A stretch of 64,000 nucleotides of DNA. Source: Terriglobales bacterium. GTDB taxonomy: Bacteria > Acidobacteriota > Terriglobia > Terriglobales > SCQP01. The position numbers and the translations under genes were made by a program. The stretch is taken from contig JBOGKM010000110.1 of the NCBI GenBank assembly GCA_050747745.1, positions 40,587-104,586 on the forward strand, written 5' to 3'. Positions 4,938 to 63,383 of the stretch are shown one piece after another (position 1 is the first letter of the stretch; every line of letters starts with the position of its first letter). The notes under the pieces were generated by a model. It was given only the letters and a program-made list of their open reading frames with translations. It ran no database searches and was not told the origin of the DNA.

Positions 4938-7220
4938 CTAACTCAACCCACCTGAACGGGGGGTGAAATCGACGGAAATGGAGAGCCGGTCGCCCTGCAC
5001 GTCCAGCACGTTGCAAAACGTGCGCTGGCCGCGGCGATTGAACTCCAGCGTCACTTGGCTGTTGCCGATACGCAGGTGGTGCAGCCGTAGCCAGGAAAGC
5101 CAGTCCGGCAGCAGCGGATTGACCACCCGCAGCTCGCGCCGTCCGGCGTTGGGGCGCAGGCCGAGCGCGGCGGTGAGCAGCAGAAACCACGCGCCTGAGG
5201 CCCACGCCTGCGGCGAGCAGGAAACTGGATAATTCACTGGCTGGTCGAACTCGTTGCGCTGCACGCCCACGAACAACTCCGGCAGGCGCTGATCGCGGAA
5301 GAAATTCGCGGCCTGGAACAGGCCGGTGAGAATACGCAGCAGCGGCTGTTTGAAATCGTAAAAGGCGAAGCCCTGCGCGGCCAGCGAGTTGTCGTGCGGC
5401 CAGACCGAGCCGCGATGATAGCTGAGCGGATTGAAGGTGGCTTCGTCGGCCGAGAGGGTGCGCACGCCCCAGCCGCTGAACATGTCGGCGCGCATCAGGC
5501 GGCGCGTGAGTTGGCGCGCGCGGTCGCGCCCGATGATGCGGCTCCAGAGTAGATGCCCGGCATTGGAGGTGATCGCGCGCACCGGTCGCTTCTGCGCGTC
5601 GAGCGCGGCCGCGTAGAAGCCCTGATCCGGAAGCCAGAATTGCTTCTCGAAGCGGTGCGAAAGTTCGGTGGCCTGCCGCCGCAGGCGGTCGGCGCCGCCG
5701 CTGTCGCCGCAGATGCGCAGCAGCCGCGCCATGCGGTAGCGCGCGTCGTAGCAATAGCCCTGCACTTCGCACAGCGCCAACGGCGGCGGGGGCAGGCTGC
5801 CATCGGGCAAGAGATAGGCATCCCAGGAATCTTTCCATCCCTGATTCGCCAGCCCCTGCGGCGAGCGCCGCAGGAATTCCACCAGTCCATCGCCATCCAG
5901 ATCCCCCGATTCATCCATCCACGCCAGCGCGCGCCGCGCTGCCGGCAGCAGCTCTTTCAGCAGTTCGTCGTCGCCGGTCCAGTTGTAGGTTTCATCCAGC
6001 ACGATGAGAAACAGCGGGGTTGCGTCCACCGAACCGAAATAGGGCGCGTGCGGCATCTCGCCGGCGCGCGTCATCTCGCCTTCGCGCATCTCGTGCAAGA
6101 TTTTTCCCGGCTCCTCGTCGCGCCAGTCGTCGCGGCGCGTGCCCTGATGGCGGGCGAGAAAACGCAGCGTCTCCTTGGCCAGGCGTGGATGCAGCATCAG
6201 CGCCTGGTAGCTGGCAATGAGGGAATCGCGGCCGAAGATGGTGGCGAACCAAGGTATGCCGGCGGCCACGATCTCGCCCGCCTCGCGCGGCACGGTGCCG
6301 CAATCGGCGCTCCCGGCCTTGCCCGCAAACGGCACCCGCAGCGAAAAAAAATCGCTCATCGCCGTCTGCAGACAGCGGGTAAACAGGTCATCGCTCGACT
6401 CGAAGCTGGTGGTGGCACGCTCCCAGTCCTGGTAGTTGGCGCGACGGCGCGCCAGGCACGCCGCGAAGCTGGAATCCACGCTGGCAGCGGTACCGCCGCC
6501 CGGTGGGGGCCGCTCGCCCGCGTCTGCCTCGACCGTACACAGCAGCGTGCGTTCGGCCCCGGGCGGGAGCGCGATGTCGAAGCGGGCCGAACGCGGTTGC
6601 AGGGTGCCCGGCGCTGGCGAGAAGCGGATGCGCGTCTGGCGGAACACGTCGTCGCGTCCGAGGTAGGAAAACGTCACCCCATCCGGACCCGGCTGGGGCC
6701 GGAAATATGTTCCCGCCGCTTGGCGCAGCATGCCGCGCACCTGAAACACATCCATGAAGTCGGCATCAAAGTGCAGCTCGACGGTCAGCGCCACCGGCTG
6801 CAGGCTGAAGTTGTGAAAAGTGAAGCGGTCGAAGAACCGCCCCGCCAGCAACTGCTCGCGATGGATATGCACGGTGTTTTCGGGCAGATCGAGGTTGTCG
6901 CGGACAGCCAGCGTGGCGGCGGTGAGCTCGATCTGCGCCAGCAGATTTTGCTGCGTTGCCGCCGACAGTACCAGCGCCCGATGACCGCTGATCAACAGCT
7001 CCCAATGGCTCAAAAAGCGCGTGTCCTGGTAGAACAACCCGGCATCGGTCGAGCTGGGCGGGGTGATGTCGCCAGCCAGCGCCGTGGCCAGAAACGTCTT
7101 GCCGTCAATCAGGGTTAGGTTGTTGACGCGGCGCGGCTCGGACGTGTGCGCCACCCGCGGCTGCTGCGGCGCGGCTTCCACTTCCAAGCCCCGGAAACTG
7201 ATCCCCTCGCCTGCTCCCAT
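4938..7220 (-). CDS. Amylo-alpha-1,6-glucosidase family protein, second paralogue
   Basis: 760 aa with the same motif set as 1423..3708: FGRDS, WRDEEPGKILHE, NQGWKDSWD, CEVQGY, YHRGSVWPHD, CSPQAWASG. Confidence 0.85.
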   Translation of the reverse strand: MGAGEGISFRGLEVEAAPQQPRVAHTSEPRRVNNLTLIDGKTFLATALAGDITPPSSTDAGLFYQDTRFLSHWELLISGHRALVLSAATQQNLLAQIELTAATLAVRDNLDLPENTVHIHREQLLAGRFFDRFTFHNFSLQPVALTVELHFDADFMDVFQVRGMLRQAAGTYFRPQPGPDGVTFSYLGRDDVFRQTRIRFSPAPGTLQPRSARFDIALPPGAERTLLCTVEADAGERPPPGGGTAASVDSSFAACLARRRANYQDWERATTSFESSDDLFTRCLQTAMSDFFSLRVPFAGKAGSADCGTVPREAGEIVAAGIPWFATIFGRDSLIASYQALMLHPRLAKETLRFLARHQGTRRDDWRDEEPGKILHEMREGEMTRAGEMPHAPYFGSVDATPLFLIVLDETYNWTGDDELLKELLPAARRALAWMDESGDLDGDGLVEFLRRSPQGLANQGWKDSWDAYLLPDGSLPPPPLALCEVQGYCYDARYRMARLLRICGDSGGADRLRRQATELSHRFEKQFWLPDQGFYAAALDAQKRPVRAITSNAGHLLWSRIIGRDRARQLTRRLMRADMFSGWGVRTLSADEATFNPLSYHRGSVWPHDNSLAAQGFAFYDFKQPLLRILTGLFQAANFFRDQRLPELFVGVQRNEFDQPVNYPVSCSPQAWASGAWFLLLTAALGLRPNAGRRELRVVNPLLPDWLSWLRLHHLRIGNSQVTLEFNRRGQRTFCNVLDVQGDRLSISVDFTPRSGGLS

Positions 7221-8769: not shown

Positions 8770-9218
8770 TGGTCCACCTGCGTGCCATCGAGAGCTGTCG
8801 CTTGGCTGGTGGTGTAGACGTCAAACACGTCCTGCCCGCCCCAACTGGTCGAATCGGGCGCATCCTGCACCGAGCGCAAACCCCAGGTGTAGGAGTCGGT
8901 GAATGGATCCTCGGGGATTTTCCGCAAAAAGCGGATCTTCTCCGTGCCCATCTGCACGCCATCCACCAGCGTCTGCAAGTCGGGCGGATAGCCGTGGGTA
9001 TCGGTCTGCACCTGAATCAGGCCGCGGTCGGCGGCATCCTTGTAGCGGTCTATGGCGTTGCGCATTTCGCGCAAATCCACGCGCAGCAGGTGCTCCTTTT
9101 CGCGCTCGATGCTGATGCGCGCCAGCGGTATGGCCATCGAGGTGAGCACCACCAGAATGGCCGTGGCCACCAGCATCTCCACCAGCGTGAAGCCGGCGGT
9201 GAGGCGGCGGCGCTTCAT
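8763..9218 (-). CDS. GspG-like pseudopilin (prepilin-type N-terminal cleavage/methylation domain)
   Basis: GFTLVEMLVATAILVVLTSMAIP motif and LREMRNAIDRYKDA..GYPPDLQTLV, a GspG-like core. It overlaps its neighbours by 4 and 7 nt. Confidence 0.8.
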   Translation of the reverse strand: MKRRRLTAGFTLVEMLVATAILVVLTSMAIPLARISIEREKEHLLRVDLREMRNAIDRYKDAADRGLIQVQTDTHGYPPDLQTLVDGVQMGTEKIRFLRKIPEDPFTDSYTWGLRSVQDAPDSTSWGGQDVFDVYTTSQATALDGTQVDQW

Positions 9219-11560
9219 TTCTGCACCACAATGGTGGCGGGTGCCAGCGCCAGCGATTGCGGCTTGCCGTCGGGTCCGCGCGCGCCCAGGCGGGTCACCG
9301 AGAGCCGCGAGGTGCCCGCGGCTTTGGCGATGAAGGTCACCGTCACCACCGGCCCCGATCCGGAAATGCCGCTCGCCCCGGAGGGCCGGCTGAGGCTGAC
9401 CTGCGCCGTGCCGCTGGCCGCATCCACGGTATGCACCAGCGCCGGGGAAGCGCCGCCGCGCTCCAGGAATCCGCCCAGCCGCATGGACGAAAGCTGTAGC
9501 GCGTTGGGATTGAAGTTGAGCTGGAAGCTTAGCGCATAGGCGTTGTGGACATTGCGCAGATCCAGTTGCACCTGGAATTTCTGGCCCGCGCGGACCTGCC
9601 GCGTCGCCGGCGCCACCACCAGCGCCGCTGCGTTCGGCGCCGGAGCAGGCGCCGCTATCGCGGGAGTGGTGGGCGCCGCCACGCTGGCGCCGGGAGCGGC
9701 TTGAGCGGGCGGCAGCTCCAGCAGATGGACGTTGTCCTGCGTACCCGTGTAGAGCGAACGCAGATCGCCGGGCGTGATGTCCAGGCTGTGGACGATGTGG
9801 GGCGTGAGGATGATGAGAATTTCCTGTTTCGTCTTTTCATCTTGGGTGCTGGAAAAAAGCCACTTGAACACCGGGATGCGGCTCAAGCCCGGCAGGCCCT
9901 CGACGTTGTGGGTGACCACGGTTTGCATCAGGCCGCCGAGGACGGCACTCTGGCCGTTGGCGAGCTCGATGGTGTGCTGAATTTCGTTGTTGCCGATGAT
10001 GGGCTGCTCGATGCCGCCGAGGTTGGTGTAGCTGTCCACGCTGGAGATGGTGATGTCTTCCTTCAACAGGACCGATTTGTCGCCCTGAACCTGCGGTGTC
10101 ATCTTGATGATCACGCCCACCTGGTCGTAGCTGAATTGGGTGTTGACCAGCGGGTTGATGCCCACCCCGCCTACGCCCGGCTGGAAGCTGCCGGTGGCGA
10201 TCGGAATTTTCTCGCCGATATCGAGCGAGGCCTGCTGCCCCTGGATGGCGCGCAATTGCGGTTCCTGGATGGTTTGCGTGCTGGCGTTGCTGAGCAGGGC
10301 GTTGAGGGTGGCGTTGGGAATGGTGACGGTGAAATTCTGGCTATTGAGATGGGTGAGCTCGTTGAGGGTGGGCGAGTTGGTGGTCGGGGTGGTACCGGTC
10401 GTGCTGGAACTGGAAGTCGTGGAAGTCGAGGATTGCGGCGCTTGAAGACCGATACCGAAGCTGGTGGGCGGCTCGAAGCCGAGCTCGCGCTTCCAGTCGC
10501 TGCTGACCTGGAGAATGCGCACATCCACGACAACTTCGGGCGGTTCCTTGTCCAGATCGTCAATCAACCGCTGGACCATGGCGACCTTGTCGGGCGTATC
10601 GCGCATGACCAGCGCGTCAATGCTGGACACGGGCATGATGTGCGGTTGGGGCTGCATCAGGCCGCGAATGGCCGCGGCAAGCTGGTTCAGGTCGGTCGGC
10701 TGTTCCACGTTTTTGATGTAGAACACCTTGAGCACGGTCGGATCCACCTGCTCATGGTTCTGGCGGTTGTTGGTTGCCACCAGGATGGTGTTGGGCGTGA
10801 TGGGCGTATAAAAGCTGTTGGTCTCGACATCAAGCACGCGCAGGATTTGCAGCAGCGATAGGTCGTGCAGCGTGAGCGAGACGCGGATGGTGTTGTTGTA
10901 GCCGCCGCCCTGGCTGGAGTTGTCGAAAATGACGTTCAGCCCCGCCAGTTTTCCGGCCGCCAGATAAGCGTTTTTGGAGTCGGTGTTGACGGTAAAGTTC
11001 TGGATCAGGGTGTTGGCTACCGGTCCCAGCTCCACCGGCCCCGCCGCACGCGCCAGCCGCTCCTGCAAGCTGTTGATGCTGGACTCACCCACCGGCTCAC
11101 CCGGCAGAGGCGGCGGGGGATGAAGAATGTTTTCAATCTCCTGAATTTGCTGGCCGGCGATGAAGTTGGCGGGATCAATGAAGGCGGCCAGGCGCAACTG
11201 CTGCATCGCCTGGGAATACTTTTTATCGGCCTTGAGCGCCATGCCGTGCCGGATGTGCGCATTGGCCGCGGCGAACTGCGCCCGCTCGGTGGCGATCTGA
11301 TACTCGACGTTGTCGGGCGACAATTGCATCGCCTTTTTAAAATCCACGTAGGCCTGGTCCAGCTTGCCTTGCGTGAGCGACATCGTGCCGTGGCGATAAT
11401 AGGGCTCGCCCTTGTCGCCGGCATGCAACTGCGGCGTGGCAACGCCGAAGGCCAGCATCACCGCCAGCAGGCACACATAGGATTTGGCGGAAGAAGACCG
11501 GGACAAGAAGCTCCGACGACGACAGGACCGGAGGCGGGTATGTTTTGGCCAGTCTAGCAT
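9215..11560 (-). CDS. Secretin (GspD/PilQ family) with N-terminal TPR region and C-terminal cohesin-like domain
   Basis: Secretin core GGLMQTVVTHNVEGLPGLSRIPVFKWLFSS..ILIILTPHIV. TPR-like helices lie near the N-terminus (KLDQAYVDFKKAMQLSPDN..). The last ~140 aa look cohesin-like (GQKFQVQLDLRNVHNAYALSFQLNFNPNALQL..GSGPVVTVTFIAKAAGTS). I place the start at ATG 11560 (basic n-region plus hydrophobic YVCLLAVMLAFGVATPQLHA). The ORF extension to 11914 overlaps smpB and looks spurious. ATG 11638 is an alternative start. Confidence 0.85.
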   Translation of the reverse strand: MLDWPKHTRLRSCRRRSFLSRSSSAKSYVCLLAVMLAFGVATPQLHAGDKGEPYYRHGTMSLTQGKLDQAYVDFKKAMQLSPDNVEYQIATERAQFAAANAHIRHGMALKADKKYSQAMQQLRLAAFIDPANFIAGQQIQEIENILHPPPPLPGEPVGESSINSLQERLARAAGPVELGPVANTLIQNFTVNTDSKNAYLAAGKLAGLNVIFDNSSQGGGYNNTIRVSLTLHDLSLLQILRVLDVETNSFYTPITPNTILVATNNRQNHEQVDPTVLKVFYIKNVEQPTDLNQLAAAIRGLMQPQPHIMPVSSIDALVMRDTPDKVAMVQRLIDDLDKEPPEVVVDVRILQVSSDWKRELGFEPPTSFGIGLQAPQSSTSTTSSSSTTGTTPTTNSPTLNELTHLNSQNFTVTIPNATLNALLSNASTQTIQEPQLRAIQGQQASLDIGEKIPIATGSFQPGVGGVGINPLVNTQFSYDQVGVIIKMTPQVQGDKSVLLKEDITISSVDSYTNLGGIEQPIIGNNEIQHTIELANGQSAVLGGLMQTVVTHNVEGLPGLSRIPVFKWLFSSTQDEKTKQEILIILTPHIVHSLDITPGDLRSLYTGTQDNVHLLELPPAQAAPGASVAAPTTPAIAAPAPAPNAAALVVAPATRQVRAGQKFQVQLDLRNVHNAYALSFQLNFNPNALQLSSMRLGGFLERGGASPALVHTVDAASGTAQVSLSRPSGASGISGSGPVVTVTFIAKAAGTSRLSVTRLGARGPDGKPQSLALAPATIVVQK

Positions 11561-11644
11561 GGGTGGACAGAGTGCCTTTATCCTCAAAGGAACTGCCGCC
11601 GCGGGCTTCCGTTCCGGAATATTTCCCTGCGGTAGCATTGAGGA

Positions 11645-12121
11645 GTGGCGGACGCGCGCACTCAGGCTCAGAAAAACATCAGCGAAAACCGCCAGGCGCG
11701 CCACAGCTACGAGCTGCTGGAGCGCTGGGAAGCCGGCATCGCCCTCACCGGCGGCGAAGTGAAATCGCTGCGCGAAGGTCAAGTGCAACTCAAGGATAGC
11801 TACGGCCTGCTGCGCGAAGGGCAGCTCTGGCTGCTGAACTGCCACATCAGTCCCTACAAGAACGCCGGCTACGCCCTGCACGATCCCGGCCGCAGCCGGC
11901 GCTTGCTGCTGCATCGCGCCGAACTGGAGCGGCTACAAGGCAAGGTGCGCGAAAAAGGACTGACATTGATCCCGCTGCGCCTCTACTGGAAAAATGGCCG
12001 CGTCAAGCTGGAGCTGGCGCTGGCCAAAGGCAAACAGCTTTATGACAAGCGCGCCACCGAACGGCGCCGCGAGGCCGAAGCCACCGCGCGTCAGGCAATG
12101 AAGGAGCGCGCGCGCCGCTAA
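11645..12121 (+). CDS. smpB: SsrA-binding protein
   Basis: IALTGGEVKSLREGQVQLKDSY, HISPY and a basic C-terminal tail. GTG start. Confidence 0.9.
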   Translation: MADARTQAQKNISENRQARHSYELLERWEAGIALTGGEVKSLREGQVQLKDSYGLLREGQLWLLNCHISPYKNAGYALHDPGRSRRLLLHRAELERLQGKVREKGLTLIPLRLYWKNGRVKLELALAKGKQLYDKRATERRREAEATARQAMKERARR

Positions 12122-12127
12122 CGAGTT

Positions 12128-13600
12128 ATGAATACCGAACTATTGCCCTCCGCCACCGGCCCACTGGCCCAGGTGGAAACAGAAGCGCTGGTCCTGCTGC
12201 TGGACGAAAAGCCGCCCAAGCTCGACCCCGCCATTGATCCGCTCGTCTCCGAGCTGGCCCAGACGCAGGAGTTTACCGGCAAAACCTTGGAGATTGCCGT
12301 GCTCCATCGTCCGGCGGGAATGAAAGCCACGCGTCTGGTGCTGGCCGGCAAGGGGAAAGCGCGCTGGGGAGTACTCGATGCTTGGCGGCTCGCGGGCGCG
12401 GTCGCGCGTCAGCTCAAGGGCAAAGGCGTCCATCAGATGACCGTGCTGCTGCCCGACGACCTGCCGCCCGCTGCCGCGGCCGCCGCCCTCGCCACCGGCG
12501 TCGCGTCGGCGAACTTCGAACCCGACACCTACAAGAGCGATCGCAAGCCCGAGCGCCAGATCACGCATCTGCAACTCATTGCGCCCAACGGCGCCGATCG
12601 CAAGGCGCTGGAGCAGGCGCTGCGCGAAGCCGCCATTTGCGCCCAGGCGCAGCGCTTCGCCCGCGATCTGGCCAACGAGCCGGGCAACCGCCTCACCCCC
12701 ACCATCCTGGGCCAGCGCGCGCAGGCGATGGCGCAAACGGCGGGCCTGGAGTGCGAACTGATCGGCCCTGAACGTGCGCGTGCGCTCAACATGGGCGCCT
12801 TCCTCGCCGTCTCGCAGGGCAGCGACGAGCCGCCCTGCATGATGGTGCTGCGCTATCGCGGCGGCGCCCAGGGCGGGCCCACGCTGGGCATCATCGGCAA
12901 GGGCATCACGTTTGATTCGGGCGGCATTTCCATCAAGCCCGCCGCCAACATGGACCAGATGAAGTTCGACATGTGCGGCGGTGCGGCCACGCTGGCGGCC
13001 ATGCAGGCGATTGCGGCGCTCAAGCTCAAGCTCAACGTCATCGGCGTGGTCGCGGCCAGCGAAAACATGCCCGGCGGGAGGGCGCAAAAGCCCGGAGACG
13101 TGCAAACCTCGATGTCAGGCAAAACCATCGAAGTGCTGAACACCGACGCGGAAGGCCGCATGGTCTTGTCCGATGCCATTCATTACGCCAAGACCTTGGG
13201 CGCGACGCATTTAATTGATTCCGCCACGCTGACCGGCTCGGTGGTGGTGGCGCTGGCCCACGTCAACACCGGCGTGTTCTCGAATGACGACGAGCTCTAC
13301 CGGCTCTTGCAGGCGGCGCTCAGCCGCAGCGGCGAAAAGATGTGGCGCCTGCCGCTCGACCAGGAATACTCGGACATGATCAAGGGCCACTGCGGCGATA
13401 TCCTCAACGCCGGCGGACGCTGGGGCGGCGCCATCACCGCCGCTGCCTTCCTGCAGGCCTTCGTGGGCGACACGCCCTGGGTCCATCTCGACATCGCCGG
13501 CACCGCCTGGCTGGAGGACAACAAACCCTGGATGCCGAAAGGCCCCACCGGCACGCCCACCTACACCCTGATCGAGTTCGCCCGCGAACTGGCCCGCTAG
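12128..13600 (+). CDS. pepA: Leucyl aminopeptidase (M17)
   Basis: M17 signature NTDAEGRMVLSDA, GKGITFDSGGISIKP and MKFDMCGGA. Confidence 0.9.
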   Translation: MNTELLPSATGPLAQVETEALVLLLDEKPPKLDPAIDPLVSELAQTQEFTGKTLEIAVLHRPAGMKATRLVLAGKGKARWGVLDAWRLAGAVARQLKGKGVHQMTVLLPDDLPPAAAAAALATGVASANFEPDTYKSDRKPERQITHLQLIAPNGADRKALEQALREAAICAQAQRFARDLANEPGNRLTPTILGQRAQAMAQTAGLECELIGPERARALNMGAFLAVSQGSDEPPCMMVLRYRGGAQGGPTLGIIGKGITFDSGGISIKPAANMDQMKFDMCGGAATLAAMQAIAALKLKLNVIGVVAASENMPGGRAQKPGDVQTSMSGKTIEVLNTDAEGRMVLSDAIHYAKTLGATHLIDSATLTGSVVVALAHVNTGVFSNDDELYRLLQAALSRSGEKMWRLPLDQEYSDMIKGHCGDILNAGGRWGGAITAAAFLQAFVGDTPWVHLDIAGTAWLEDNKPWMPKGPTGTPTYTLIEFARELAR

Positions 13601-13637
13601 GAACTGGCGGGCCGGATTAGAATTCTTTAAACGTTAC

Positions 13638-13653
13638 TGGCGGCTGAATTGCA
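13638..13653 (+). promoter_or_regulatory. Candidate sigma-54 (-24/-12) promoter upstream of flhA
   Basis: TGGCGG-CTGAA-TTGCA against consensus TGGCAC-N5-TTGCA. GG and GC have the correct 10-nt spacing. An AT-rich stretch lies just upstream. Confidence 0.55.
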
Positions 13654-13673
13654 GGGCAGAGCGTAGTCGAGCT

Positions 13674-15824
13674 ATGCTTGCGGCAGCCCATCCCAAGGTT
13701 CTGCGCGCCGCGCCCCCAGCCGGTGCGGGCGCGGCGGCCGCGCCAACTCCCGGGCCGGCCAAGGTCACCGGCTGGCTGCGCGTGCCTGCGCGGGCCATGG
13801 ATTGGACGCTGCCCATCGCCGCCGTGGCGTTGGTGGGCCTGCTGATCGTTCCCATTCCCGCCCTGGTGCTGGACATCCTGCTTACCCTCAGCATCGCCAC
13901 TTCGGTGCTGGTGCTGCTGGTCGCAGTGCAGATTTTGCGGCCGGTGCAGTTCAACGTCTTTCCCTCCCTGTTGCTGCTGCTGACCCTGTTCCGGCTGGCG
14001 CTGAACCTGGCCAGCAGCCGCCGCATTTTGCTGCACGGATCGGAGGGCATCTACGCCGCCGGCCACGTGATCGCGGCCTTCGGGCAGTTTGTCGTGGGCG
14101 GCAATTACGTGGTCGGATTCGTGATTTTCCTGGTGCTGATCGCCATTCAGTTCGTGGTGGTCAGCCACGGCGCGGTACGCACCGCCGAAGTGACAGCGCG
14201 CTTCACCCTGGATGCCCTGCCGGGCAAGCAGATGGCCATTGACGCCGATCTCAACGCCGGCCTCATCAACGAGCTGCAGGCGCGCGAGCGCCGGCAGGCG
14301 ATCGCCCGCGAAGCGGAATTTTACGGCGCCATGGACGGCGCCGCGCGTTTCAACCAGCGCGACGCCATCGCCACCATTCTCATCACCTCAATCAACATCA
14401 TCGCCGGGTTCCTGATCGGTGTGCTCCAACAGCACATGGCGTTTACCGAGGCGCTGAAAACCTACACCATCCTCACCGTCGGGGATGGCCTGGTCACGCT
14501 GATTCCCTCGCTGCTGGTTTCCGTCGCCGGCGCCATCGTGATCACGCGTGCCTCCTCCGATCACAGCCTGGGCACCGATCTGGGCTTGCAACTGCTGGCG
14601 CGGCCGCGCGCACTCTGGATCGCAGGCGCCACGCTGGGCGCGTTGGCCCTTATGCCGGGCCTGCCCAAGATGTCGTTTCTGACCCTGGGCGGGCTGCTGG
14701 TCTTTGGCGCGCACAAGTTGTCCAAAATGGCCGCCCAGGACCGATCCCCCGCCGCCGCCAGCGCCGGCAGCGCTGCGCCGGAGGCGCTGGAGCCGCTGCT
14801 CAAAGTCGAACCGCTGGCCTTGGAGGTGGGCTATGCGCTGGTGCCGCTGGTGGACGAAGCCCAGGGCGGCAAGCTGTTGGGCCGCATCCGCGCGCTGCGC
14901 AAGCAGCTGGCGCTGCAAATGGGTTTCATTATTCCCTCCATTCACATCACCGACAATCTGCAATTGCAGCCGCGCGAGTACGTCCTGTCGCTGCGGGGTG
15001 TTGAGATCGGCCGCTACGAAACCTACCAGAACTGCCTGCTGGCGATTCATTCCGGCATGCAGGCGCCGCCGCTTGAGGGCAAGGAAACGCTGGAGCCTGC
15101 CTTCGGCGTCGCCGCGCGCTGGATCCTGCCGCAGCAGCAGGAACAGGCGTTAGCGGACGGGTTTGCCGTGGTGGACCAGACCGCAGTCATGGCGACGCAC
15201 ATCGCCGAGCTGATCCGCCAGAACGCCCACGAACTGCTCACGCGCCAGGAAACCCAGCGCCTGCTGGACGCGATGAACGACAACCAGCCCAAGCTGGTCG
15301 AGGAATTGGTCCCGAAATTGCTGAGCTTAGGTGAGTTACAGAAAATTCTTCAGCAACTTCTAAGAGAGCACGTGTCCATCCGCGATTTACCCACCATTCT
15401 GGAAGCACTGATCGAGGCCGCCGGGGCCAAGAAGGGACCGGTGGGCATGATCGAGGCGGCGCGCCAGGCGCTGGGCCGGGCGCTGGTGCAACCGCTGCTG
15501 GCCGCCGATGGCAGCCTGCAAGTGATCACCCTGGCTGGTGCGCTGGAGGAGGAATTGCAGCGCGCCTTTGACCCGCAGGCGCAGCCGGCGCAACCGGCGC
15601 TGCCGGCGGTGGGCACGGTCAGCCTGGGCCGCCGCATTCTGGACGGGCTGAAGCGCTTCGCCTATGATCCGGCCGCGGGCGCGCCGCAAGTGCTGCTGTG
15701 CAGCTCCCCCGCGCGCTTCTATTTGCGCCGCATGCTGGAAGCCAACTGGCCGCGGCTGAGCGTGCTGGCGCCGGCGGAAATCCCGGCCAAGATTTCGGTC
15801 CACTCCCTGGGGACGGTCTCCTAA
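13674..15824 (+). CDS. flhA: Flagellar export apparatus protein FlhA
   Basis: FHIPEP-family sequence throughout (LLTLFRLALNLASSRRILL, GGNYVVGFVIFLVLIAIQFVV, FTLDALPGKQMAIDADL, ESAFYGAMDGA-like). The true start may be ATG 13797 (MDWTLPIAAV), because the predicted sigma-54 start site would leave only ~10 nt before 13674. Confidence 0.9.
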   Translation: MLAAAHPKVLRAAPPAGAGAAAAPTPGPAKVTGWLRVPARAMDWTLPIAAVALVGLLIVPIPALVLDILLTLSIATSVLVLLVAVQILRPVQFNVFPSLLLLLTLFRLALNLASSRRILLHGSEGIYAAGHVIAAFGQFVVGGNYVVGFVIFLVLIAIQFVVVSHGAVRTAEVTARFTLDALPGKQMAIDADLNAGLINELQARERRQAIAREAEFYGAMDGAARFNQRDAIATILITSINIIAGFLIGVLQQHMAFTEALKTYTILTVGDGLVTLIPSLLVSVAGAIVITRASSDHSLGTDLGLQLLARPRALWIAGATLGALALMPGLPKMSFLTLGGLLVFGAHKLSKMAAQDRSPAAASAGSAAPEALEPLLKVEPLALEVGYALVPLVDEAQGGKLLGRIRALRKQLALQMGFIIPSIHITDNLQLQPREYVLSLRGVEIGRYETYQNCLLAIHSGMQAPPLEGKETLEPAFGVAARWILPQQQEQALADGFAVVDQTAVMATHIAELIRQNAHELLTRQETQRLLDAMNDNQPKLVEELVPKLLSLGELQKILQQLLREHVSIRDLPTILEALIEAAGAKKGPVGMIEAARQALGRALVQPLLAADGSLQVITLAGALEEELQRAFDPQAQPAQPALPAVGTVSLGRRILDGLKRFAYDPAAGAPQVLLCSSPARFYLRRMLEANWPRLSVLAPAEIPAKISVHSLGTVS

Positions 15825-15827
15825 ACC

Positions 15828-16604
15828 ATGAACGCTGCTACCAGGCATTACGAGCACCCGCAGCCGCCCGACGCCGCCGAGCGCGAGCGTCTGTTGCTGG
15901 AGCATCTGCCGCAGGTGCGATATCTGGCGCGCCGCATCCACGAGCGGCTGCCGCAACAGGTCCTACTGGAGGACTTGGTGCAGGCGGGGGTGGTGGGACT
16001 GATTGACGCGCTGCACAAATACGATCCGGCACGCAACGCGCAACTCGGCACCTACGCCCGCTTCCGCATCCGCGGCGCCATTCTCGACAGCCTGCGCGCC
16101 CTGGACTGGAGTCCGCGCGAGCTGCGCCGCCAGGGTCGCGAACTGCAGGCCGCCGCCGCCGAGCTGCGCGACAAGCTGGGGCGCGCGCCCACGGAAGACG
16201 AAATCTGTCAGGCGCTGTCGCTGTCGCGGACGGAATACCAGCGGCTGCTGGCCGCCCTCGACCGGCTGGAGATGGACGGCGGACGCTCCGAACCCGACGC
16301 CCCGCCGGCGGTGGAAGCCGCCGTCAGTCCCGACCCGGATCCGTTCGACCTGTGCCAGCGGAATGAATCCAAGGCACTGCTGGCCAAGCTGATATCCGAG
16401 CTTCCGGAACGCGATCAGCAAATCCTCAGCCTGTATTACTTTGAAGAGCTGACCATGAAAGAGGTCGGACAGGTGCTGGGCATCGGCGAGAGCCGTATCT
16501 CGCAAATCCATTCCGCCCTGCTCACCCGGTTGCGCGCCAAGCTACGTGCGACCGTCCAGCCCATGGGCAAGTCCGAGGTGCGCTCGGCCGCGTTGCTGGG
16601 ATAA
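15828..16604 (+). CDS. fliA: Flagellar sigma factor FliA (sigma-28)
   Basis: Sigma-70 region 2 (LEDLVQAGVVGLIDALHKYDP..FRIRGAILD) and region 4 (LSLYYFEELTMKEVGQVLGIGESRISQIH). It starts 4 nt after the flhA stop. Confidence 0.85.
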   Translation: MNAATRHYEHPQPPDAAERERLLLEHLPQVRYLARRIHERLPQQVLLEDLVQAGVVGLIDALHKYDPARNAQLGTYARFRIRGAILDSLRALDWSPRELRRQGRELQAAAAELRDKLGRAPTEDEICQALSLSRTEYQRLLAALDRLEMDGGRSEPDAPPAVEAAVSPDPDPFDLCQRNESKALLAKLISELPERDQQILSLYYFEELTMKEVGQVLGIGESRISQIHSALLTRLRAKLRATVQPMGKSEVRSAALLG

Positions 16605-16616
16605 GGGAGCCTCGCC

Positions 16617-17594
16617 ATGGAACGCAGCCTCATCCAGGACGAAATCGACTTTCTCTTCCGTGCCGCGCGCGGCCTGCAGCCCGGCGGGATCCGCCGCCCG
16701 CGCCAGTTCATGCGCTGCGACTTCCGCCAGGCGGGTCAGATCACCCGCGAACAGGCGCGCGTGGTGGGGGGGCTGCACGAGAGCTTCGCCCGCAATCTGG
16801 CGCACGTGCTCGGTGCCCAATTGCGCACCCACCTGGAGGCTACGCTGGTGGCCATCGAGCAGTTGGGCTTCGAGGAGTTCGCCCAGCGCCTGCCGGAGGT
16901 TTGCTACGTGGCCTCGCTCGCCGTCAACCCCACCGGCGTCAGCGCCGCGCTGCAACTGGACCTGAGCCTGGCGTTTCCCATGATCGAGCTGGTGCTGGGG
17001 GGCAATGGCACCTCCGGACACGCGCCAACCGAAGTCACCGAAATCGAAGAACGGATTCTGGAAAGCATCGTCACGCTGATGGCGCGCGAGTTGCAGCAGG
17101 TGTGGCAGCCGGTGCTCGACCTGAGTTTCCGTTTCGATCATCGCCAGCCTATGGCGCAAATCCTGCGCCTCATGCCTCCGCACGAAAAAGTCCTGGCACT
17201 GGGATTTGAATTGCACTTGCCGGAGGCGCGCGGCATGCTCAACCTCGCCTTTCCGGCCGTGCTCTCGACCGGGCTGTTGCGCAAGCTGGCGGAATCGCCG
17301 GTGTACAACCGCCGTCAGGAGGACACCGACAACCGTCCGCGTCTGCGGCAGCGCCTGCTGGACGCGGCGTTCCCGCTGGAGCTGGTGCTGCCGGCGGCCA
17401 AAGTTCCCATCCGCCAACTGCTGGCGCTGGAAGCGGGCGAGGTGCTGCGTTTCGCCCACCCCACCGAACGTCCAGCGGAGTTGAAAATTGCCGGCCGCGC
17501 GGTGTGCGCCGCGCAGCCGGTGCGCCAGGGCCGCTTGCGGGCCGCATTGTTATCCACGCTGCCGCACGTGGTGCGGCCCGAACCAGGGAGCTGA
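16617..17594 (+). CDS. fliM: Flagellar motor switch protein FliM
   Basis: N-terminal LIQDEIDFLF (CheY-P-binding-type motif), CDFRQAGQITREQ, a central FliM domain and a C-terminal SpoA-like region. Confidence 0.85.
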   Translation: MERSLIQDEIDFLFRAARGLQPGGIRRPRQFMRCDFRQAGQITREQARVVGGLHESFARNLAHVLGAQLRTHLEATLVAIEQLGFEEFAQRLPEVCYVASLAVNPTGVSAALQLDLSLAFPMIELVLGGNGTSGHAPTEVTEIEERILESIVTLMARELQQVWQPVLDLSFRFDHRQPMAQILRLMPPHEKVLALGFELHLPEARGMLNLAFPAVLSTGLLRKLAESPVYNRRQEDTDNRPRLRQRLLDAAFPLELVLPAAKVPIRQLLALEAGEVLRFAHPTERPAELKIAGRAVCAAQPVRQGRLRAALLSTLPHVVRPEPGS

Positions 17595-17601
17595 GGAACA
17601 C

Positions 17602-18486
17602 ATGGCTGAGGAAAACTCCACCACCCCCAATCCGGAAAGCAATGCCGCTTTGCCGCAGCAGAGCTACAGAGAAGTCTGGGTCGCCGCCGCGCTGGAGGTG
17701 ATCCAGAGTCTGAGCGGCGATACCCGTTGGGCCGCCGCGCCGGCGCTGCCCGGCAGCGGCGAGAACGCCATCGAGATGGTGGCCTTTCTCGAACTGCGCG
17801 GCGATTTGGCTGGTATCCAGCAGTTCCGCTTCTATCAGGGCGAGGGGCGCGCCTGGGCCCAGGTATCGGTTCCACCCGCACCCGATGCGCCGCGCGTGCG
17901 CTCTACCCCGCTCGATGATGCCGAGCGCGACGCGCTGGGCGACGTGCTGCGGCACATGCTGGAAACCGCGACCTCGGGATTGCACGCCGCCGGCTGGGGC
18001 GAGGTGGGCATCGACTTGCGCCACCTGGGTCCGCTGCGGCGGACGGTGGAAAGCTCGGAAGGGGTCGAGGCGCTGAGCTTCACCCATCCCGATGGCCTGC
18101 GGCTCAACCTCGCCATGACCATGGATGGCACCCTGGGCGAGGCAATCCGCCAGCGCATGAGTCCGGGCACGGGGCCCGTGCCCACCCCATTGGGCACGCG
18201 CGCTCCCGCCACCAGCGCCAGCCGTTTCGATATGCTGCTCGATGTCGAGTTGGAAGCTACCCTGCGTTTCGGCAACCGCCAGATGCTGCTGCACGACGTT
18301 GCCGAACTGGTCCCCGGCTCGGTGTTGGAACTCGACCGCCAGATCGACGATCCGGTGGAATTGCTGGTCGGCGGCAAAATCATCGCCTGGGGCGAAGTGG
18401 TGGTGGTCGACGGCAACTACGGTTTGCGCATCAATCGCATGGTGCAGCGCCGCGAACGCATGGCGGCGCTGGAGGCGGCGCGATGA
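17602..18486 (+). CDS. fliN: Flagellar motor switch protein FliN/FliY-like (C-terminal SpoA domain, ~200 aa N-terminal extension)
   Basis: C-terminal LLDVELEATLRFGNRQMLLHDVAELVPGSVLELDRQIDDPVELLVGGKIIAWGEVVVVDGNYGLRI is a typical FliN. Start taken at ATG 17602, after the fliM stop at 17594. Confidence 0.8.
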   Translation: MAEENSTTPNPESNAALPQQSYREVWVAAALEVIQSLSGDTRWAAAPALPGSGENAIEMVAFLELRGDLAGIQQFRFYQGEGRAWAQVSVPPAPDAPRVRSTPLDDAERDALGDVLRHMLETATSGLHAAGWGEVGIDLRHLGPLRRTVESSEGVEALSFTHPDGLRLNLAMTMDGTLGEAIRQRMSPGTGPVPTPLGTRAPATSASRFDMLLDVELEATLRFGNRQMLLHDVAELVPGSVLELDRQIDDPVELLVGGKIIAWGEVVVVDGNYGLRINRMVQRRERMAALEAAR

Positions 18487-19406
18487 GCGGCGCGCCTGCC
18501 ACGCTCGATCTTCCCTCGCCGCTGCCGCGGTCCGCGACCGTGCCCGAGCGTGAGGGTCTGCTGGCTGGTCTCAGTCAGGGCTGGCAGTCCTGGCGCCAGC
18601 GCTGGGTGTGCATGGGACCGGACTGCAGCGAACGCTATGGCCTGCGCGCCTGGTGCAAGTTGCCGGCGCGGGTGCAGTTGCAGGAGGGCTGGTGCTGCAG
18701 CCAGGAGTGCTTCCAGTCCGCACTCGAGGTGCAGGCACACCGGCTGCTGCACGAGGCGGTGCCGCGGGCGGTGCGGCAGCACCGCTTCCCGCTGGGATTG
18801 CTGCTGCTTTCCCAGGGCCGCATCACCCAGACACAGCTACGCGCCGCCTTGCAGGAACAGCAACAGCGCGGCGGCCGGGTTGGGGAATGGCTGGTGCGCC
18901 GGGGCGCGGTGCCAGAGACCGACGTGGCCGCCACGGTCGCGCTGCAGTGGGCCTGCCCCACCTTTCCCCTGGCGGAATCGCACGTCTGGCAGCAGTTGCG
19001 CGGCTGGGTACCGTTGCCCCTGCTGCGGACGCTGGGCATGCTGCCGCTCTATTTTGCGCCCGCGCAGCGCAAACTGTATGTTGGTTTTACCCAGACGCTT
19101 GATTTCAATGTCCTGGCCGCGCTCGGCCAGATGCTGGAATGCGCCACCGAGGCCTGCATCGTGACCGATTCGGCCTGGGCCGCAGCGCTGGAACAGCTGC
19201 GCAGCGCGCCCGGCGCCGCCAGCGAAAGCGTTGAGCTGGAAGACATGGACGGCGCCCTCGACATTGCCGGCGTCGTCCGCCAGTACGCCCGCTACGCCGA
19301 AGCGAGGCACGTGCGCCTGGCGGCGATTGGTCCCTTCCTCTGGGTGCGCATCCGCGGAAGGCGCACCCTTCACCTGACCTTCCGCACTGCCAGGCCCCGC
19401 AGCTAA
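18483..19406 (+). CDS. Zinc-ribbon / MshEN (T2SS-E N-terminal, c-di-GMP-receptor-type) domain protein without an ATPase domain
   Basis: Its ATG overlaps the fliN stop (ATGA). Cys cluster C-x4-C...CCSQEC. Residues 103-155 form two 24-aa MshEN motifs separated by 5 residues. The T2SSE_N-like LPLYFAPAQRKLYVGFTQTLD follows. Confidence 0.7.
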   Translation: MSGAPATLDLPSPLPRSATVPEREGLLAGLSQGWQSWRQRWVCMGPDCSERYGLRAWCKLPARVQLQEGWCCSQECFQSALEVQAHRLLHEAVPRAVRQHRFPLGLLLLSQGRITQTQLRAALQEQQQRGGRVGEWLVRRGAVPETDVAATVALQWACPTFPLAESHVWQQLRGWVPLPLLRTLGMLPLYFAPAQRKLYVGFTQTLDFNVLAALGQMLECATEACIVTDSAWAAALEQLRSAPGAASESVELEDMDGALDIAGVVRQYARYAEARHVRLAAIGPFLWVRIRGRRTLHLTFRTARPRS

Positions 19407-19419
19407 ACTGTAGCTGCCA

Positions 19420-20241
19420 ATGCCTCTGCCCGCAGCTCTGCGCCGCCGCTATGGCGGTGATCTGGACTTCCCCGCGCGTCCGGTGCCGTACGTTTTCGCC
19501 AACTTCGTCTCCAGCGTGGATGGGGTGGTGAGCTACGGCGTGCCCGGACGTTCCGGAGGAGGCACGCTCAGCGGCGGCGATGCAGCCGACCGCTTCCTGA
19601 TGGCGCTGTTGCGTGCCGCCGCCGATGCAGTCATCGTGGGCGCGACAACGCTACGCGAGGCGGGAGCGCGAGCGCTATGGTCGCCGGGATTCACCTGCCC
19701 GGAAGCGGCGGCGGATTTGGCGCGCTGGCGCCGTGCCCGCCGCGTGCCACCCTCGCCGCTGCTGGTGGTGCTGACCACCAGTGGACGGCTGAATCCGCGC
19801 AGCGCGGTGTTTACCACACCCGGCTCGCGCGTGTTGGTGATCAGCTCCAAGGCCGGCGCCGCGGCGCTGGCGCCCGGACTGCGCGGCGCCAGCGCCGAAG
19901 TCGAAGTCCGGCCCTGGCGCTCGCCCGCCGGCCGCGTGCCCGTGCCGGCGATGCTGCGCCTGCTGCGGCGGGAATACAAGATCCAGCGGCTGCTGCATGA
20001 GGGCGGGCCGGCGCTCCTGGGCGAATTCCTGGCTGCCGGCGCCATACAACAGCTGTTCCTCACCCTGGCGCCGCGCCTGGCCGGCCGCAGCCGTGCAGCG
20101 CCCCGTCCCGGTCTCGTCGAGGGCGTAGCCTTCGCTGCCGCCGCCTCGCCCCAACTGCGCCTGGTCAGCCTCAAGGCGCACGGCGCCATGCTGTTCACCC
20201 GCTACCGCGTCACCGACCGAGATTGCCGCTCCGGCGGCTAG
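19420..20241 (+). CDS. RibD C-terminal domain / dihydrofolate-reductase-like family protein
   Basis: FVSSVDGVVS, DAVIVGATTLR and LHEGGPALLGEFLAAG, the typical RibD_C pattern. Confidence 0.7.
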   Translation: MPLPAALRRRYGGDLDFPARPVPYVFANFVSSVDGVVSYGVPGRSGGGTLSGGDAADRFLMALLRAAADAVIVGATTLREAGARALWSPGFTCPEAAADLARWRRARRVPPSPLLVVLTTSGRLNPRSAVFTTPGSRVLVISSKAGAAALAPGLRGASAEVEVRPWRSPAGRVPVPAMLRLLRREYKIQRLLHEGGPALLGEFLAAGAIQQLFLTLAPRLAGRSRAAPRPGLVEGVAFAAAASPQLRLVSLKAHGAMLFTRYRVTDRDCRSGG

Positions 20242-20498
20242 CGCAAAGCACCAACTCCGAGGCCCAGTTCGCGCTGGAGGATGCGGGCGTCGTAGGGGCT
20301 GCAGGCGAAGGTGCGGCCGTCGAGGTCGAAGGTCGGGACTTTGTATTTGCCCTGATTCTGTTGCGCGACCCACTCGGCCGCGCCTTCGATCTGCTCGATG
20401 TTGATCTCCTCGAAGGCGATGCCTTGCCCGGCGAGAAAACGCTTGGCGCGCCGGCAGTCGGGGCACCAGGTGGTGGTATATATTTTCAGCATCATCAA
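20238..20498 (-). CDS. Glutaredoxin-family protein (NrdH/mycoredoxin-like)
   Basis: YTTTWCPDCRRAKRFL active-site CxxC and the KVPTF motif. 86 aa. Confidence 0.75.
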   Translation of the reverse strand: MMMLKIYTTTWCPDCRRAKRFLAGQGIAFEEINIEQIEGAAEWVAQQNQGKYKVPTFDLDGRTFACSPYDARILQRELGLGVGALR

Positions 20499-21211
20499 TA
20501 GCCGGAAAACTCTTCCGTTCGGATATCGTCGTCGTCCACGCCCGCGTCATGGAGCGTGCCGCGCAGCGCGGTCACCATGCCCGGCGGCCCGGCGATAAAA
20601 TAAACCGGCTCGTGCGCATCCTTAAGATGTTCGGCCAGGAGCTTGCCCGTAATCAGGCCGCGCGCGCCGCTCCATGACCGCTGTGATTTTTCCATTTCCG
20701 ACATCACCGGCACGCAAGTGAAGCGCGGATTCTCCTGCTGCAGCGCCAGTAGGTCGTCCAGAAACGCGGCGTCTTCCGGACGTCGGTTGCCATAAAACAG
20801 CACGATGCGATGGCCGAGCTTGTGGTGCGCGGCGTGCCGTGCCATGGAGCGGAACGGCGTGATGCCGATGCCGCCGGCCAGCAGCACGATCGTGCGGGTA
20901 TCGCGATTCGGCAGCGTGAAGTCGCCCAAGGGACCGTCCAACTCGAGCGCGCCGTTCAGCGGCATGCCGGCGAAAGCGTTCTTGAAGGCGCTGCCGCGCA
21001 TGCGCGTCGCTACCGTCAGGGCGGGCGCTTCGGATTCGTCGGCAAGCGAGAAGGTGTGGACATTGCCGCCGGGTGTGGAATCGGGCAACTGCGGCAGCTT
21101 CAAATCAATCGTCTGGCCGGGACGGAAATCGAAGTGGGCGGGCTTTTCCAGGCGGAACGCCATAGTGCCTTCCGCCACGGTTTGGCGTTCCAGAAGACGC
21201 GAGGTGCTCAT
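20495..21211 (-). CDS. FNR-like FAD/NAD(P)-binding oxidoreductase
   Basis: HTFSLA (R-x-Y-S-type FAD site), LLAGGIGITPF (NAD(P) GxGxxP) and YFIAGPPGMV. Confidence 0.8.
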   Translation of the reverse strand: MSTSRLLERQTVAEGTMAFRLEKPAHFDFRPGQTIDLKLPQLPDSTPGGNVHTFSLADESEAPALTVATRMRGSAFKNAFAGMPLNGALELDGPLGDFTLPNRDTRTIVLLAGGIGITPFRSMARHAAHHKLGHRIVLFYGNRRPEDAAFLDDLLALQQENPRFTCVPVMSEMEKSQRSWSGARGLITGKLLAEHLKDAHEPVYFIAGPPGMVTALRGTLHDAGVDDDDIRTEEFSGY

Positions 21212-46785: not shown

Positions 46786-46838
46786 CACGGCGGCAGCGCT
46801 GTGGTGCTGCCCGGACCGCCGCAGGGGCGCGTCGGCGC

Positions 46839-54863: not shown

Positions 54864-55570
54864 CCGCGCTCGCGTGCCTGCCGCTGCTGCTGGCGCCGGC
54901 AGCACCCAAAGCGCACGCCGCCTCGCCCTGGTCCTTGATCGGGCAGACGACGCGGAAATTGTGGCAGGGCACCCGGGCGCTGCCCGCGGCAGCGCTGCGC
55001 GATTGGCGGGTCACGGTGCCGGTGCTGGCGATCACCGGGCTGCTGATCACCACAGGCGACGCCAGCCTGTCCCGGAAAATCCAATCGCCGCACCTTGAAC
55101 AAGAGAGCAAACTTTGGTCCAACCGCGGCTTGCTGGACATCGAACCGGCCTTCACGCTGTTGGCTGTGGCTCACGAAGATCGCTGTCTGTTTTGTCACGC
55201 TACCGGCCACTTCGTCCTCACTGCGCTGACCACGGAAGCCTACACCACCGCCGCCGTGCAAGTACTGAAGTTCAGCGCTGGACGGGAGCGTCCCTATACG
55301 CCCGGCGATGGCGACGGCGGCTTCAACGAAGGCGGAAGTTCGTTTCCCTCGGGCCACGCCGCCGGCGCGTTCGCGATGGCCGAACTGTTGTACGAGCACG
55401 ATCCCCAGGCAGGCTGGACCAACGGCCTGGGCTTCTCGCTGGCCTCAGGCGTGGCGGCGGCGCGCTTTACCGCCAAGGAACATTTCCCTTCTGACCTGCT
55501 CGTGGGGGCGCTGCTAGGTTCGCTGCTCGGCCGCTGCACGGCCCATTGCCCGCCGGCCCCGGATCACTAA
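54785..55570 (+). CDS. PAP2-family (phosphatidic acid phosphatase type 2 / haloperoxidase) membrane protein
   Basis: PAP2 motifs KFSAGRERP, PSGH and ARFTAKEHFPSD. The start is uncertain; 54785 is the only upstream ATG. Confidence 0.7.
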   Translation: MRLLRKRAGVQGSGRLQGAVHHRRHLAALACLPLLLAPAAPKAHAASPWSLIGQTTRKLWQGTRALPAAALRDWRVTVPVLAITGLLITTGDASLSRKIQSPHLEQESKLWSNRGLLDIEPAFTLLAVAHEDRCLFCHATGHFVLTALTTEAYTTAAVQVLKFSAGRERPYTPGDGDGGFNEGGSSFPSGHAAGAFAMAELLYEHDPQAGWTNGLGFSLASGVAAARFTAKEHFPSDLLVGALLGSLLGRCTAHCPPAPDH

Positions 55571-56481: not shown

Positions 56482-56484
56482 GGC

Positions 56485-57852: not shown

Positions 57853-57856
57853 AGTG

Positions 57857-60249: not shown

Positions 60250-60250
60250 G

Positions 60251-61757: not shown

Positions 61758-61759
61758 GC

Positions 61760-62551: not shown

Positions 62552-62568
62552 GGGAGCGCTCCTTCTGG

Positions 62569-63327: not shown

Positions 63328-63347
63328 GGCTCCTCCACCCAATTCCA

Positions 63348-63363: not shown

Positions 63364-63383
63364 CCGGCGCAACTAAGGGGATT

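Follow-up and report, generated by a model that had tools for sequence, protein, structure and literature searches.

A predicted MshEN-type c-di-GMP receptor with a putative zinc site is encoded directly after fliN in the flagellar gene cluster of Terriglobia

Introduction

Control of flagella by cyclic di-GMP (c-di-GMP) is a central theme in bacterial lifestyle switching. In the stretch of DNA analysed here (the window: 64,000 nucleotides (nt) of contig JBOGKM010000110.1 from a Terriglobales bacterium), the flagellar gene fliN is directly followed by a gene for a 307-residue protein with the features of an MshEN domain, a c-di-GMP receptor module of pilus and secretion ATPases. This locus raises the question of what such a receptor does in a flagellar operon. 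The evidence presented below indicates that the encoded protein family is probably a new link between c-di-GMP and the flagellum that does not involve a PilZ protein.

An earlier note on this DNA had described the gene as the fifth after flhA, fliA, fliM and fliN, with a start that overlaps the fliN stop. Both statements were confirmed. The Pfam matches of all four upstream genes establish the order, and the two reading frames share the letters ATGA at 18483-18486, in which the start codon (18483-18485) overlaps the TGA stop of fliN (18484-18486). A GGAGG Shine-Dalgarno sequence lies 7 nt upstream of this start. The same GGAG(G)-N7-ATGA/GTGA arrangement is likewise present in six close relatives (loci L001-L003, L005, L007 and L010).

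Results and Discussion

The c-di-GMP-binding motif and its conservation

Residues 103-155 of the protein match the NCBIfam model NF053729 (c-di-GMP_motif; cyclic di-GMP-binding domain, MshE-related) over its entire length (1-53 of 53); the score is 50.1 bits, where the curated cut-off is 38 bits, and the E-value 1.8e-13. Furthermore, all 30 homologues collected in the first, word-indexed search round matched this model at E ≤ 0.001. Together with its flanking residues, the region consists of the invariant pair H100-R101, motif I (residues 103-126), a spacer (127-131), motif II (132-155) and W156. A search of the PDB aligned residues 100-168 without gaps to residues 6-70 of MshE from Vibrio cholerae, with a spacer of five residues. 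The earlier description of two 24-residue MshEN copies with an exact five-residue spacer holds, except for the first residue of motif I, which is Pro instead of Arg.

The structure of MshE in complex with c-di-GMP revealed that the ligand is contacted by clusters of Leu residues, by backbone amides of Gly residues and by two Gln residues (PMC5013675). In motif I and just ahead of it, the MshE residues R7, R9, L10, G11, G18, L25, L29 and Q32 correspond to R101, P103, L104, G105, G112, L119, L123 and Q126 of the window protein, while in motif II R38, L39, G40, G47, L54, L58 and Q61 correspond to R132, V133, G134, G141, V148, V152 and Q155. In total, 11 of the 12 key positions are kept or conservatively replaced. 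Substitutions that inactivate XpsE have been described (G11V, I19R, L29R, R38G, G40L, L54H, L58C and Q61V); none of these occurs in the window protein, except for an Arg (R113) at the position equivalent to I19, which is motif position 11.

Conservation was evaluated among 79 orthologues with an overall identity of 32-69%, a set that was also used for the cysteine counts given below. Each of the motif residues P103, L104, G105, L108, L109, L119, L123, Q126, G134 and Q155 is kept in 95% or more of these orthologues. The same holds for H100, R101, L106, Q118 and W156, and position 132 is occupied by Arg or Lys in 78 of them. The segment 100-156 is the most conserved of the protein, with a mean frequency of the commonest residue of 0.73, compared with 0.29-0.53 in the other segments. 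Judged from this alignment, the MshEN-type receptor module is intact and under strong purifying selection.

Pro103 is the sole deviation at a key position and is invariant in the family. The relaxed search motif of Wang et al., the authors of the MshE structure, permits [RKPN] at this first motif position, and their alignment includes NfrB from Escherichia coli with the residues R-P489-L490-G491. NfrB binds c-di-GMP specifically and with high affinity (PMC8669469). By analogy with NfrB, Pro at position 1 of motif I is regarded here as an accepted variant. The invariant His-Arg pair, H100 and R101, ends two residues before this Pro.

Fold of the MshEN domain and lack of an ATPase domain

The earlier note had also proposed that the rest of a T2SSE_N-like fold follows the motif and that no ATPase domain is present, and both proposals are borne out. 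When the family profile was compared with the PDB, the MshEN domains of PilF, PilB and MshE were matched over residues 99 to about 242, with E-values between 2e-21 and 4e-10. The AlphaFold2 model of the whole protein, for which the input alignment contained 30 sequences, has a mean predicted local distance difference test score (pLDDT) of 87.8 and a predicted template modelling (pTM) score of 0.82. It contains four helices (104-110, 116-129, 133-139 and 145-156), followed by an alpha/beta subdomain. The model superposes on MshE with bound c-di-GMP (5htl_B; Foldseek E 6.6e-8, target-normalised TM score 0.76), and the GSPII domains of PilF were matched as well (E 5e-8 to 5e-7). Foldseek also matched structures in which the N1 subdomain (MshEN_C) serves as a protein-docking module, namely N1 of EpsE together with a partner protein, the GspE-GspL pair, and PilB with PilZ.

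An ATPase domain of the T2SSE type, with its Walker motifs, was found neither in Pfam nor in NCBIfam, and the protein stops at residue 307; the NCBIfam PilB model is matched at positions 3-152 only. Pfam contained no PilZ or YcgR family match at E ≤ 0.1, the AlphaFold2 model has no beta-barrel, and no membrane-targeting helix was detected. Both the curated motif model and the fold thus place the protein in the MshEN domain family, and it is neither an ATPase of type II secretion systems (T2SS) or type IV pili nor a PilZ protein.

Several observations weigh against a c-di-GMP receptor of the MshE type. The Arg with which MshE stacks on guanine is missing from motif I. At motif position 10, 34 of the 79 orthologues have Gln in place of Gly, as does NfrB, and position 11 is polar in most orthologues. 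The spacer comprises six residues in 58 orthologues and five in only 8, among them the window protein. In addition, while the search with the motif model NF053729 was successful, the Pfam model PF05157 stayed below its gathering threshold of 23.1 bits, with 18.6 bits for the whole protein and 20.3 bits for the fragment. This Pfam model mainly covers the second subdomain (MshEN_C / T2SSE_N1), and some orthologues carry a precomputed match to it; despite the miss, residues 157-244 can be regarded as homologous to MshEN_C because of the PDB profile search and the fold match. Finally, according to the MshE structure report, MshEN domains are able to bind cyclic GMP-AMP (cGAMP) too (PMC5013675), and for this reason c-di-GMP is not certain to be the ligand.

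Gene neighbourhood in related genomes

The neighbourhood was surveyed in the best 80 of 124 relatives, which were obtained from a scan with one genome per species of GTDB, and gene order was read by tblastn with the proteins of the window. The linkage to fliM and fliN is not limited to the window. In 78 of the 80 loci, fliN lies directly upstream on the same strand, and the whole series flhA-fliA-fliM-fliN-X, where X is the MshEN gene, is found in most of them. Start and fliN stop overlap by 4 nt in 22 loci and by 8 nt in another 8, and most of the remaining starts lie within about 22 nt of the stop; as the candidate start nearest to the fliN stop was chosen, these distances are biased toward short values. 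In close relatives, the overlapping start is supported because the N-terminus MTRxP..LxLPPP is conserved.

Downstream, in about 58 loci, optional genes for HDOD, CheY-like receiver and CheX proteins lead on to flgF-flgG-(flgA)-flgH-flgI, all in the same orientation. The switch-input genes cheY-like and cheX are the ones most often found right after the MshEN gene. On a contig of 4.1 Mb, an independent set of gene calls gave the order flhB-flhA-fliA-fliM-fliN-X-cheX-flgF-flgG-?-flgH-flgI-?-flgM. Accordingly, the gene is not the last of its operon in most relatives but lies in the middle of a large flagellar cluster. Its place after fliN, inside the flagellar cluster of Terriglobia, is fixed.

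In the window, the second flagellar block is located on the opposite strand, about 36 kb away, while in most relatives it lies directly 3' of the MshEN gene on the same strand. The clade of the window has therefore undergone a rearrangement. The same inversion is seen at closer range in locus L005.

The two loci without fliN upstream are different. In L019 (2031-5239), the gene adjoins one for a CheY-like receiver and a divergently transcribed one for a GGDEF diguanylate cyclase, and a gene for a phage-type integrase is located about 2.6 kb upstream. In L054 (9393-11983), it stands between an OmpR-type response regulator and flgF-flgG-flgH-flgI.

As a separate observation, an HDOD gene lies directly 3' of the MshEN gene, before cheY-like and cheX, in L012 (10892-11896, plus strand) and in about eight other loci. 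HDOD is an inactive HD-related domain that is often tied to c-di-GMP signalling.

Zinc site, other cysteines and C-terminal domain

The N-terminal part of the protein contains the cysteine pattern C43-x4-C48-x23-C72-x3-C76. In the secondary structure predicted by AlphaFold2, a beta-hairpin and then a long helix come after the first Cys pair, a layout that reads as treble-clef-like. The pattern Cx(2 or 4)C-x(13-27)-Cx3C is present in 74 of the 79 orthologues, with a central spacing of 21-27 in 72, and four more have CxH...Cx3C; a C-x2-C-x25-26-C-x3-C variant occurs in 15. As the pattern is kept across orthologues, residues 43-91 very likely form a structural Cys4 zinc site.

The cluster had previously been compared with FCS/TRASH zinc ribbons on the basis of C-x4-C...CCSxxC. 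The cluster itself is present and conserved, except for C71, the second residue of the CC pair. The assignment to this type was set aside for lack of model support: FCS, TRASH and YHS models gave no match to the zinc region. The TRASH/zf-FCS/MYM signature is C-x2-C-x19-22-C-x3-C, compared with C-x4-C-x23-C-x3-C in the window protein. A zf-C6H2/MYND-like model was the single zinc-finger match, and a weak one (19.6 bits against a cut-off of 30).

Further cysteines are found in MshEN_C. C225 is conserved in at least 95% of the orthologues, C158 in 69 of the 79 and C220 in about 60-70%. The spacing C220-x4-C225 mirrors C43-x4-C48. Residues C158, C220 and C225 could form a second metal or redox site.

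The C-terminal domain (residues 245-307), with the order beta-alpha-beta-beta-beta, had no Pfam match. Foldseek returned generic matches only, with a best E-value of 0.09; these were glyoxalase-type modules, a ribosomal protein and a methylthioadenosine (MTA) nucleosidase. The possibility that this domain is a divergent repeat of T2SSE_N1, of the kind seen in PA3740, was considered and rejected: comparison of the profiles of residues 245-302 and 157-244 by hhalign found nothing, and the strand order differs from that of N1.

Size and taxonomic spread of the family

The profile search that followed the first round yielded 629 homologues at E ≤ 1e-20. An exhaustive hidden Markov model search of 1.84 billion cluster representatives (clusters at 50% identity) gave 401 clusters at E ≤ 1e-30, of which the top 150 all have 209-375 residues. 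In the sources, members are named hypothetical protein or T2SS protein E N-terminal domain. Cultured hosts were sought through names and cluster members, and this search returned records of metagenomes or metagenome-assembled genomes (MAGs) only.

Of the 80 surveyed loci, 78 are labelled Terriglobia or Acidobacteriota. The exceptions, both from MAGs, are L035 (Verrucomicrobiia) and L068 (Candidatus Eisenbacteria); all other family members that carry a taxonomic label belong to these groups as well. Both have the full flhA-fliA-fliM-fliN-X arrangement and are 32-36% identical to the query, like many Acidobacteriota loci. Their labels are probably binning or labelling errors; the alternative is lateral transfer.

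Proposed function and alternative explanations

We tentatively favour the explanation that the protein is a soluble c-di-GMP receptor dedicated to the flagellum and acts on the FliM/FliN switch, an explanation that as a whole stays just short of probable. Its parts stand at different strengths. That the protein acts on the flagellum is highly probable, and the conserved motif makes c-di-GMP binding likely. The switch complex as the target, with a brake or bias on rotation as the effect, is nearly as plausible as it is doubtful; it is suggested by the coupling to fliN, the cheY-like and cheX neighbours, and the known use of N1 as a docking module. It counts against this last step that gene adjacency cannot distinguish an effect on rotation from an effect on assembly.

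Sequence and model show a protein that combines a Cys4 zinc site, a complete MshEN domain and a small C-terminal domain, with no enzymatic domain. According to the proposal, one c-di-GMP molecule would bind to the MshEN_N bundle as in MshE, whereby the clusters L104/V148/V152 and V133/L119/L123 would pack on the guanines, the backbones of G105 and G134 would contact the guanine Hoogsteen edges, and Q126 and Q155 would contact the ribose and phosphate. Positive charge would be contributed by R132 and by R101, which may replace the missing Arg of motif I. With a start that overlaps the fliN stop and a position kept across Terriglobia, the protein is made together with the switch proteins. The c-di-GMP-bound form might then dock on FliM/FliN in the C-ring through its zinc domain, N1 subdomain and C-terminal domain, a step that we hold to be possible rather than probable. 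At high c-di-GMP, docking would slow, stop or bias rotation, so that the protein would do the work of YcgR, MotI and FlgZ, which are PilZ proteins, with an unrelated receptor fold.

Other explanations accept a functional receptor but place its action elsewhere. The protein could sense c-di-GMP as an assembly or export checkpoint and prevent the building of new flagella at high c-di-GMP, either at the site where FliH docks on FliN or at the cytoplasmic ring of FlhA. The evidence for action on the switch fits this checkpoint too: the co-oriented block holds flhA besides fliM and fliN, and the gene precedes the rod and ring genes. Wang et al. cite c-di-GMP control of the export ATPase FliI. However, the tightest coupling is that to fliN, and the switch-input genes cheY-like and cheX are the commonest neighbours downstream, and such a checkpoint seems rather unlikely. 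A factor for flagellar number or placement, which replaces FlhF/FlhG and uses c-di-GMP as a spatial cue, as described for FimW and pili, is clearly more doubtful. FimW has been reported to bind c-di-GMP and to move to the cell poles in a c-di-GMP-dependent manner, and in the window fliA directly follows flhA, with neither flhF nor flhG between them; on the other hand, flhF/flhG could be encoded outside the block, and the protein has no GTPase or ATPase domain and no detected membrane-targeting helix. Regulation of sigma-28, by a c-di-GMP-controlled anti-sigma factor or FliA partner with a zinc site as in zinc-binding anti-sigma factors, is very improbable. It would fit the presence of fliA in the same block and an N-terminal helix next to a zinc site, but the HxxxCxxC anti-sigma motif is absent, the gene is coupled to fliN and not to fliA, and the anti-sigma-28 idea was rejected because a canonical flgM is present in the window and in relatives.

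Alternatively, the MshEN domain may be silent, with no nucleotide binding, as in XpsE and in PilB from Pseudomonas aeruginosa; the protein would then serve Terriglobia only as a scaffold, within the C-ring or the basal body. The Arg to Pro exchange at position 1, the polar positions 10 and 11, the six-residue spacer of most members and the sub-threshold Pfam match would all be explained in this way, and degenerate MshEN domains are common according to the literature. Nevertheless, a mere scaffold is hard to sustain because the ligand-contact residues are the best conserved of the protein. Moreover, the inactivating substitutions of XpsE are absent apart from the Arg at the I19 equivalent, NfrB binds c-di-GMP with the same PLG start and Gln at position 10, and one paralogue adjoins a GGDEF gene (L019). 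We consider a silent domain improbable, if slightly less so than a placement factor.

Returning to the receptor that acts on the switch, it is tempting to propose, with more reserve than the receptor itself, a further class of flagellar c-di-GMP effectors besides the PilZ and FleQ types, which would be MshEN-based, zinc-containing, produced in step with FliN and C-ring-docking. Motor output in Terriglobia might then be set by c-di-GMP, possibly a redox or metal signal, and the CheY/CheX input.

Comparison with known systems

Compared with MshE from V. cholerae, PilB and PilF, the window protein shares the two 24-residue motifs with their spacer and the four-helix bundle followed by the N1 alpha/beta subdomain. 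It differs from them in the lack of a T2SSE ATPase, the additional zinc site, the additional C-terminal domain and the replacement of Arg by Pro, and in its flagellar gene context, whereas these ATPases belong to pilus or secretion systems. NfrB, with which it shares the PLG start of motif I, is among the best full-length NCBIfam matches to the MshEN part. In contrast to the non-catalytic window protein in its flagellar cluster, NfrB is a membrane glycosyltransferase-MshEN protein that is activated by c-di-GMP and has a polysaccharide output.

PA3740 from P. aeruginosa (MshEN-xT2SSE_N1) is involved in swarming, and its c-di-GMP binding has been characterised experimentally (Wang et al.). Compared by description only, it is likewise a small soluble MshEN protein without an ATPase and is tied to motility behaviour, but it is proteobacterial, has not been reported in switch operons and has no described zinc site. 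A looser parallel in function, again by description, is FimW, which binds c-di-GMP and regulates type IV pili but is a separate case. Fusions of MshEN_N are also known, such as (MshEN_N)2-CheX in Geobacter lovleyi (Glov_2742) and CheA with MshEN_N. These resemble the present case in a predicted link between MshEN and chemotaxis or switch input, as cheX lies within one or two genes in many Terriglobia loci; they are fusions to enzymes, however, while the window receptor stands alone as a protein and has additional domains of its own.

The flagellar effectors YcgR, MotI/DgrA, FlgZ and PlzA are small c-di-GMP receptors on the motor that belong to the PilZ type, a beta-barrel domain with the signature RxxxR...D/NxSxxG that occurs with or without a YcgR-N domain. 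Their likeness to the window protein lies in the proposed role only, as its fold is unrelated. To our knowledge, all characterised c-di-GMP effectors at the motor level are PilZ proteins, from Proteobacteria, Firmicutes and spirochaetes, and we know of no PilZ-type effector gene that is fixed directly after fliN.

No link between MshEN and FliM, FliN or Acidobacteria, and no description of this family, was found in open-access papers and preprints. The absence of a known MshEN-only protein in a switch operon, as stated earlier, thus stands for the open-access literature, but an MshEN protein without an ATPase is not new in itself, and neither is a link between MshEN and chemotaxis. Since PA3740 and the CheX and CheA fusions are already known, the novelty lies in the context and architecture. 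The comparison suggests that the zinc site-MshEN-beta-alpha-beta-beta-beta architecture, the size of this unannotated family and its constant location, with the switch genes on one side and the cheY/cheX/rod genes on the other, are new.

Terriglobia are among the most abundant soil lineages. If the protein is a true motor effector in these bacteria, the same regulatory problem would have been solved with an unrelated receptor fold of higher affinity, and there would be a concrete, testable handle on how motility is controlled in a soil phylum that is dominant yet has been little studied. The flagellar C-ring would also be added to the targets of the MshEN N1 docking module, known from pilus and secretion machines. 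Furthermore, hundreds of proteins that now lack a functional name could be better annotated.

Other features of the window

The coordinates of the features are collected in Table 1. The window has a G+C content of 65.6%, and its closest relatives are Terriglobales MAGs.

Table 1. Features of the gene after fliN, its protein and the flagellar blocks, in positions of the window.
Feature	Position	Strand	Evidence or description
flhA (flagellar export gate), first gene of the co-oriented block	13674-15824	+	Pfam FHIPEP, E 2.5e-242
fliA (sigma-28)	15828-16604	+	Pfam Sigma70 r2/r3/r4
fliM	16617-17594	+	Pfam FliM and FliMN_C
fliN, 295 residues	17599-18486	+	Pfam FliMN_C, E 4.5e-22; NCBIfam FliN/FliY at the C-terminus only
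GGAGG Shine-Dalgarno sequence, within the 3' end of fliN	18471-18475	+	direct reading
MshEN gene	18483-19406	+	307 residues: putative zinc site, MshEN, beta-alpha-beta-beta-beta domain; ATG overlaps fliN stop
Cys4 zinc site (predicted), C43, C48, C72 and C76; residues 43-91	18609-18755	+	model secondary structure, Cys conservation
MshEN_N, predicted c-di-GMP-binding four-helix bundle; residues 100-156	18780-18950	+	NF053729, alignment to MshE, conservation
MshEN_C / T2SSE_N1-type alpha/beta subdomain; residues 157-244	18951-19214	+	PF05157 sub-threshold, PDB profile matches to about 242, Foldseek
C-terminal beta-alpha-beta-beta-beta domain; residues 245-307	19215-19403	+	AlphaFold2 of the domain alone, pLDDT 93.7
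Second flagellar block	55567-63800	-	Pfam: REC, flgF, flgG, flgA, flgH, flgI, rod-binding protein, flgM, unassigned open reading frame (180 residues), flgK, flgL
CheY-like REC of the second block	63384-63800	-	Pfam
flgM of the second block	58359-58682	-	Pfam

Upstream of flhA, smpB and a gene for leucyl aminopeptidase are located. An open reading frame for a RibD_C-type reductase begins 13 nt past the stop of the MshEN gene and is kept only in L001. Scanning of 13400-20600 for promoters and terminators gave nothing informative, with no terminator 3' of the MshEN gene.

The open reading frame listed for fliN begins within fliM, at a TTG. Translation more likely starts at the ATG at 17599, 5 nt past the fliM stop, which gives the length in Table 1. 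At this length the window FliN is unusually long, and SpoA/FliN models match its last ~80 residues only; the N-terminal part of about 200 residues had no match in Pfam or NCBIfam. In distant relatives, FliN is likewise alignable at the C-terminus only. This N-terminal part could be a FliY-like or lineage-specific extension and would then be relevant to the question of the partner.

Between the flagellar blocks lie genes for a sigma-54-dependent response regulator (REC-AAA-HTH_8) and, after it, a PAS histidine kinase (45415-48716, plus strand). This pair could be flagellar regulators of the FleR/FleS type or could be unrelated. The gene at 9215-11914 (minus strand) encodes a large secretin that has TPR repeats at its N-terminus and a cohesin domain at its C-terminus; its true start lies further in, because the longest open reading frame extends into smpB, which is on the opposite strand. 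Two paralogues of about 760 residues (1423-3708, plus strand; 4938-7220, minus strand) are related to glycogen debranching enzymes (GDE_N_bis and an MGH1-like glycoside hydrolase domain). A DUF4097 protein is encoded between them, next to a GT4 glycosyltransferase.

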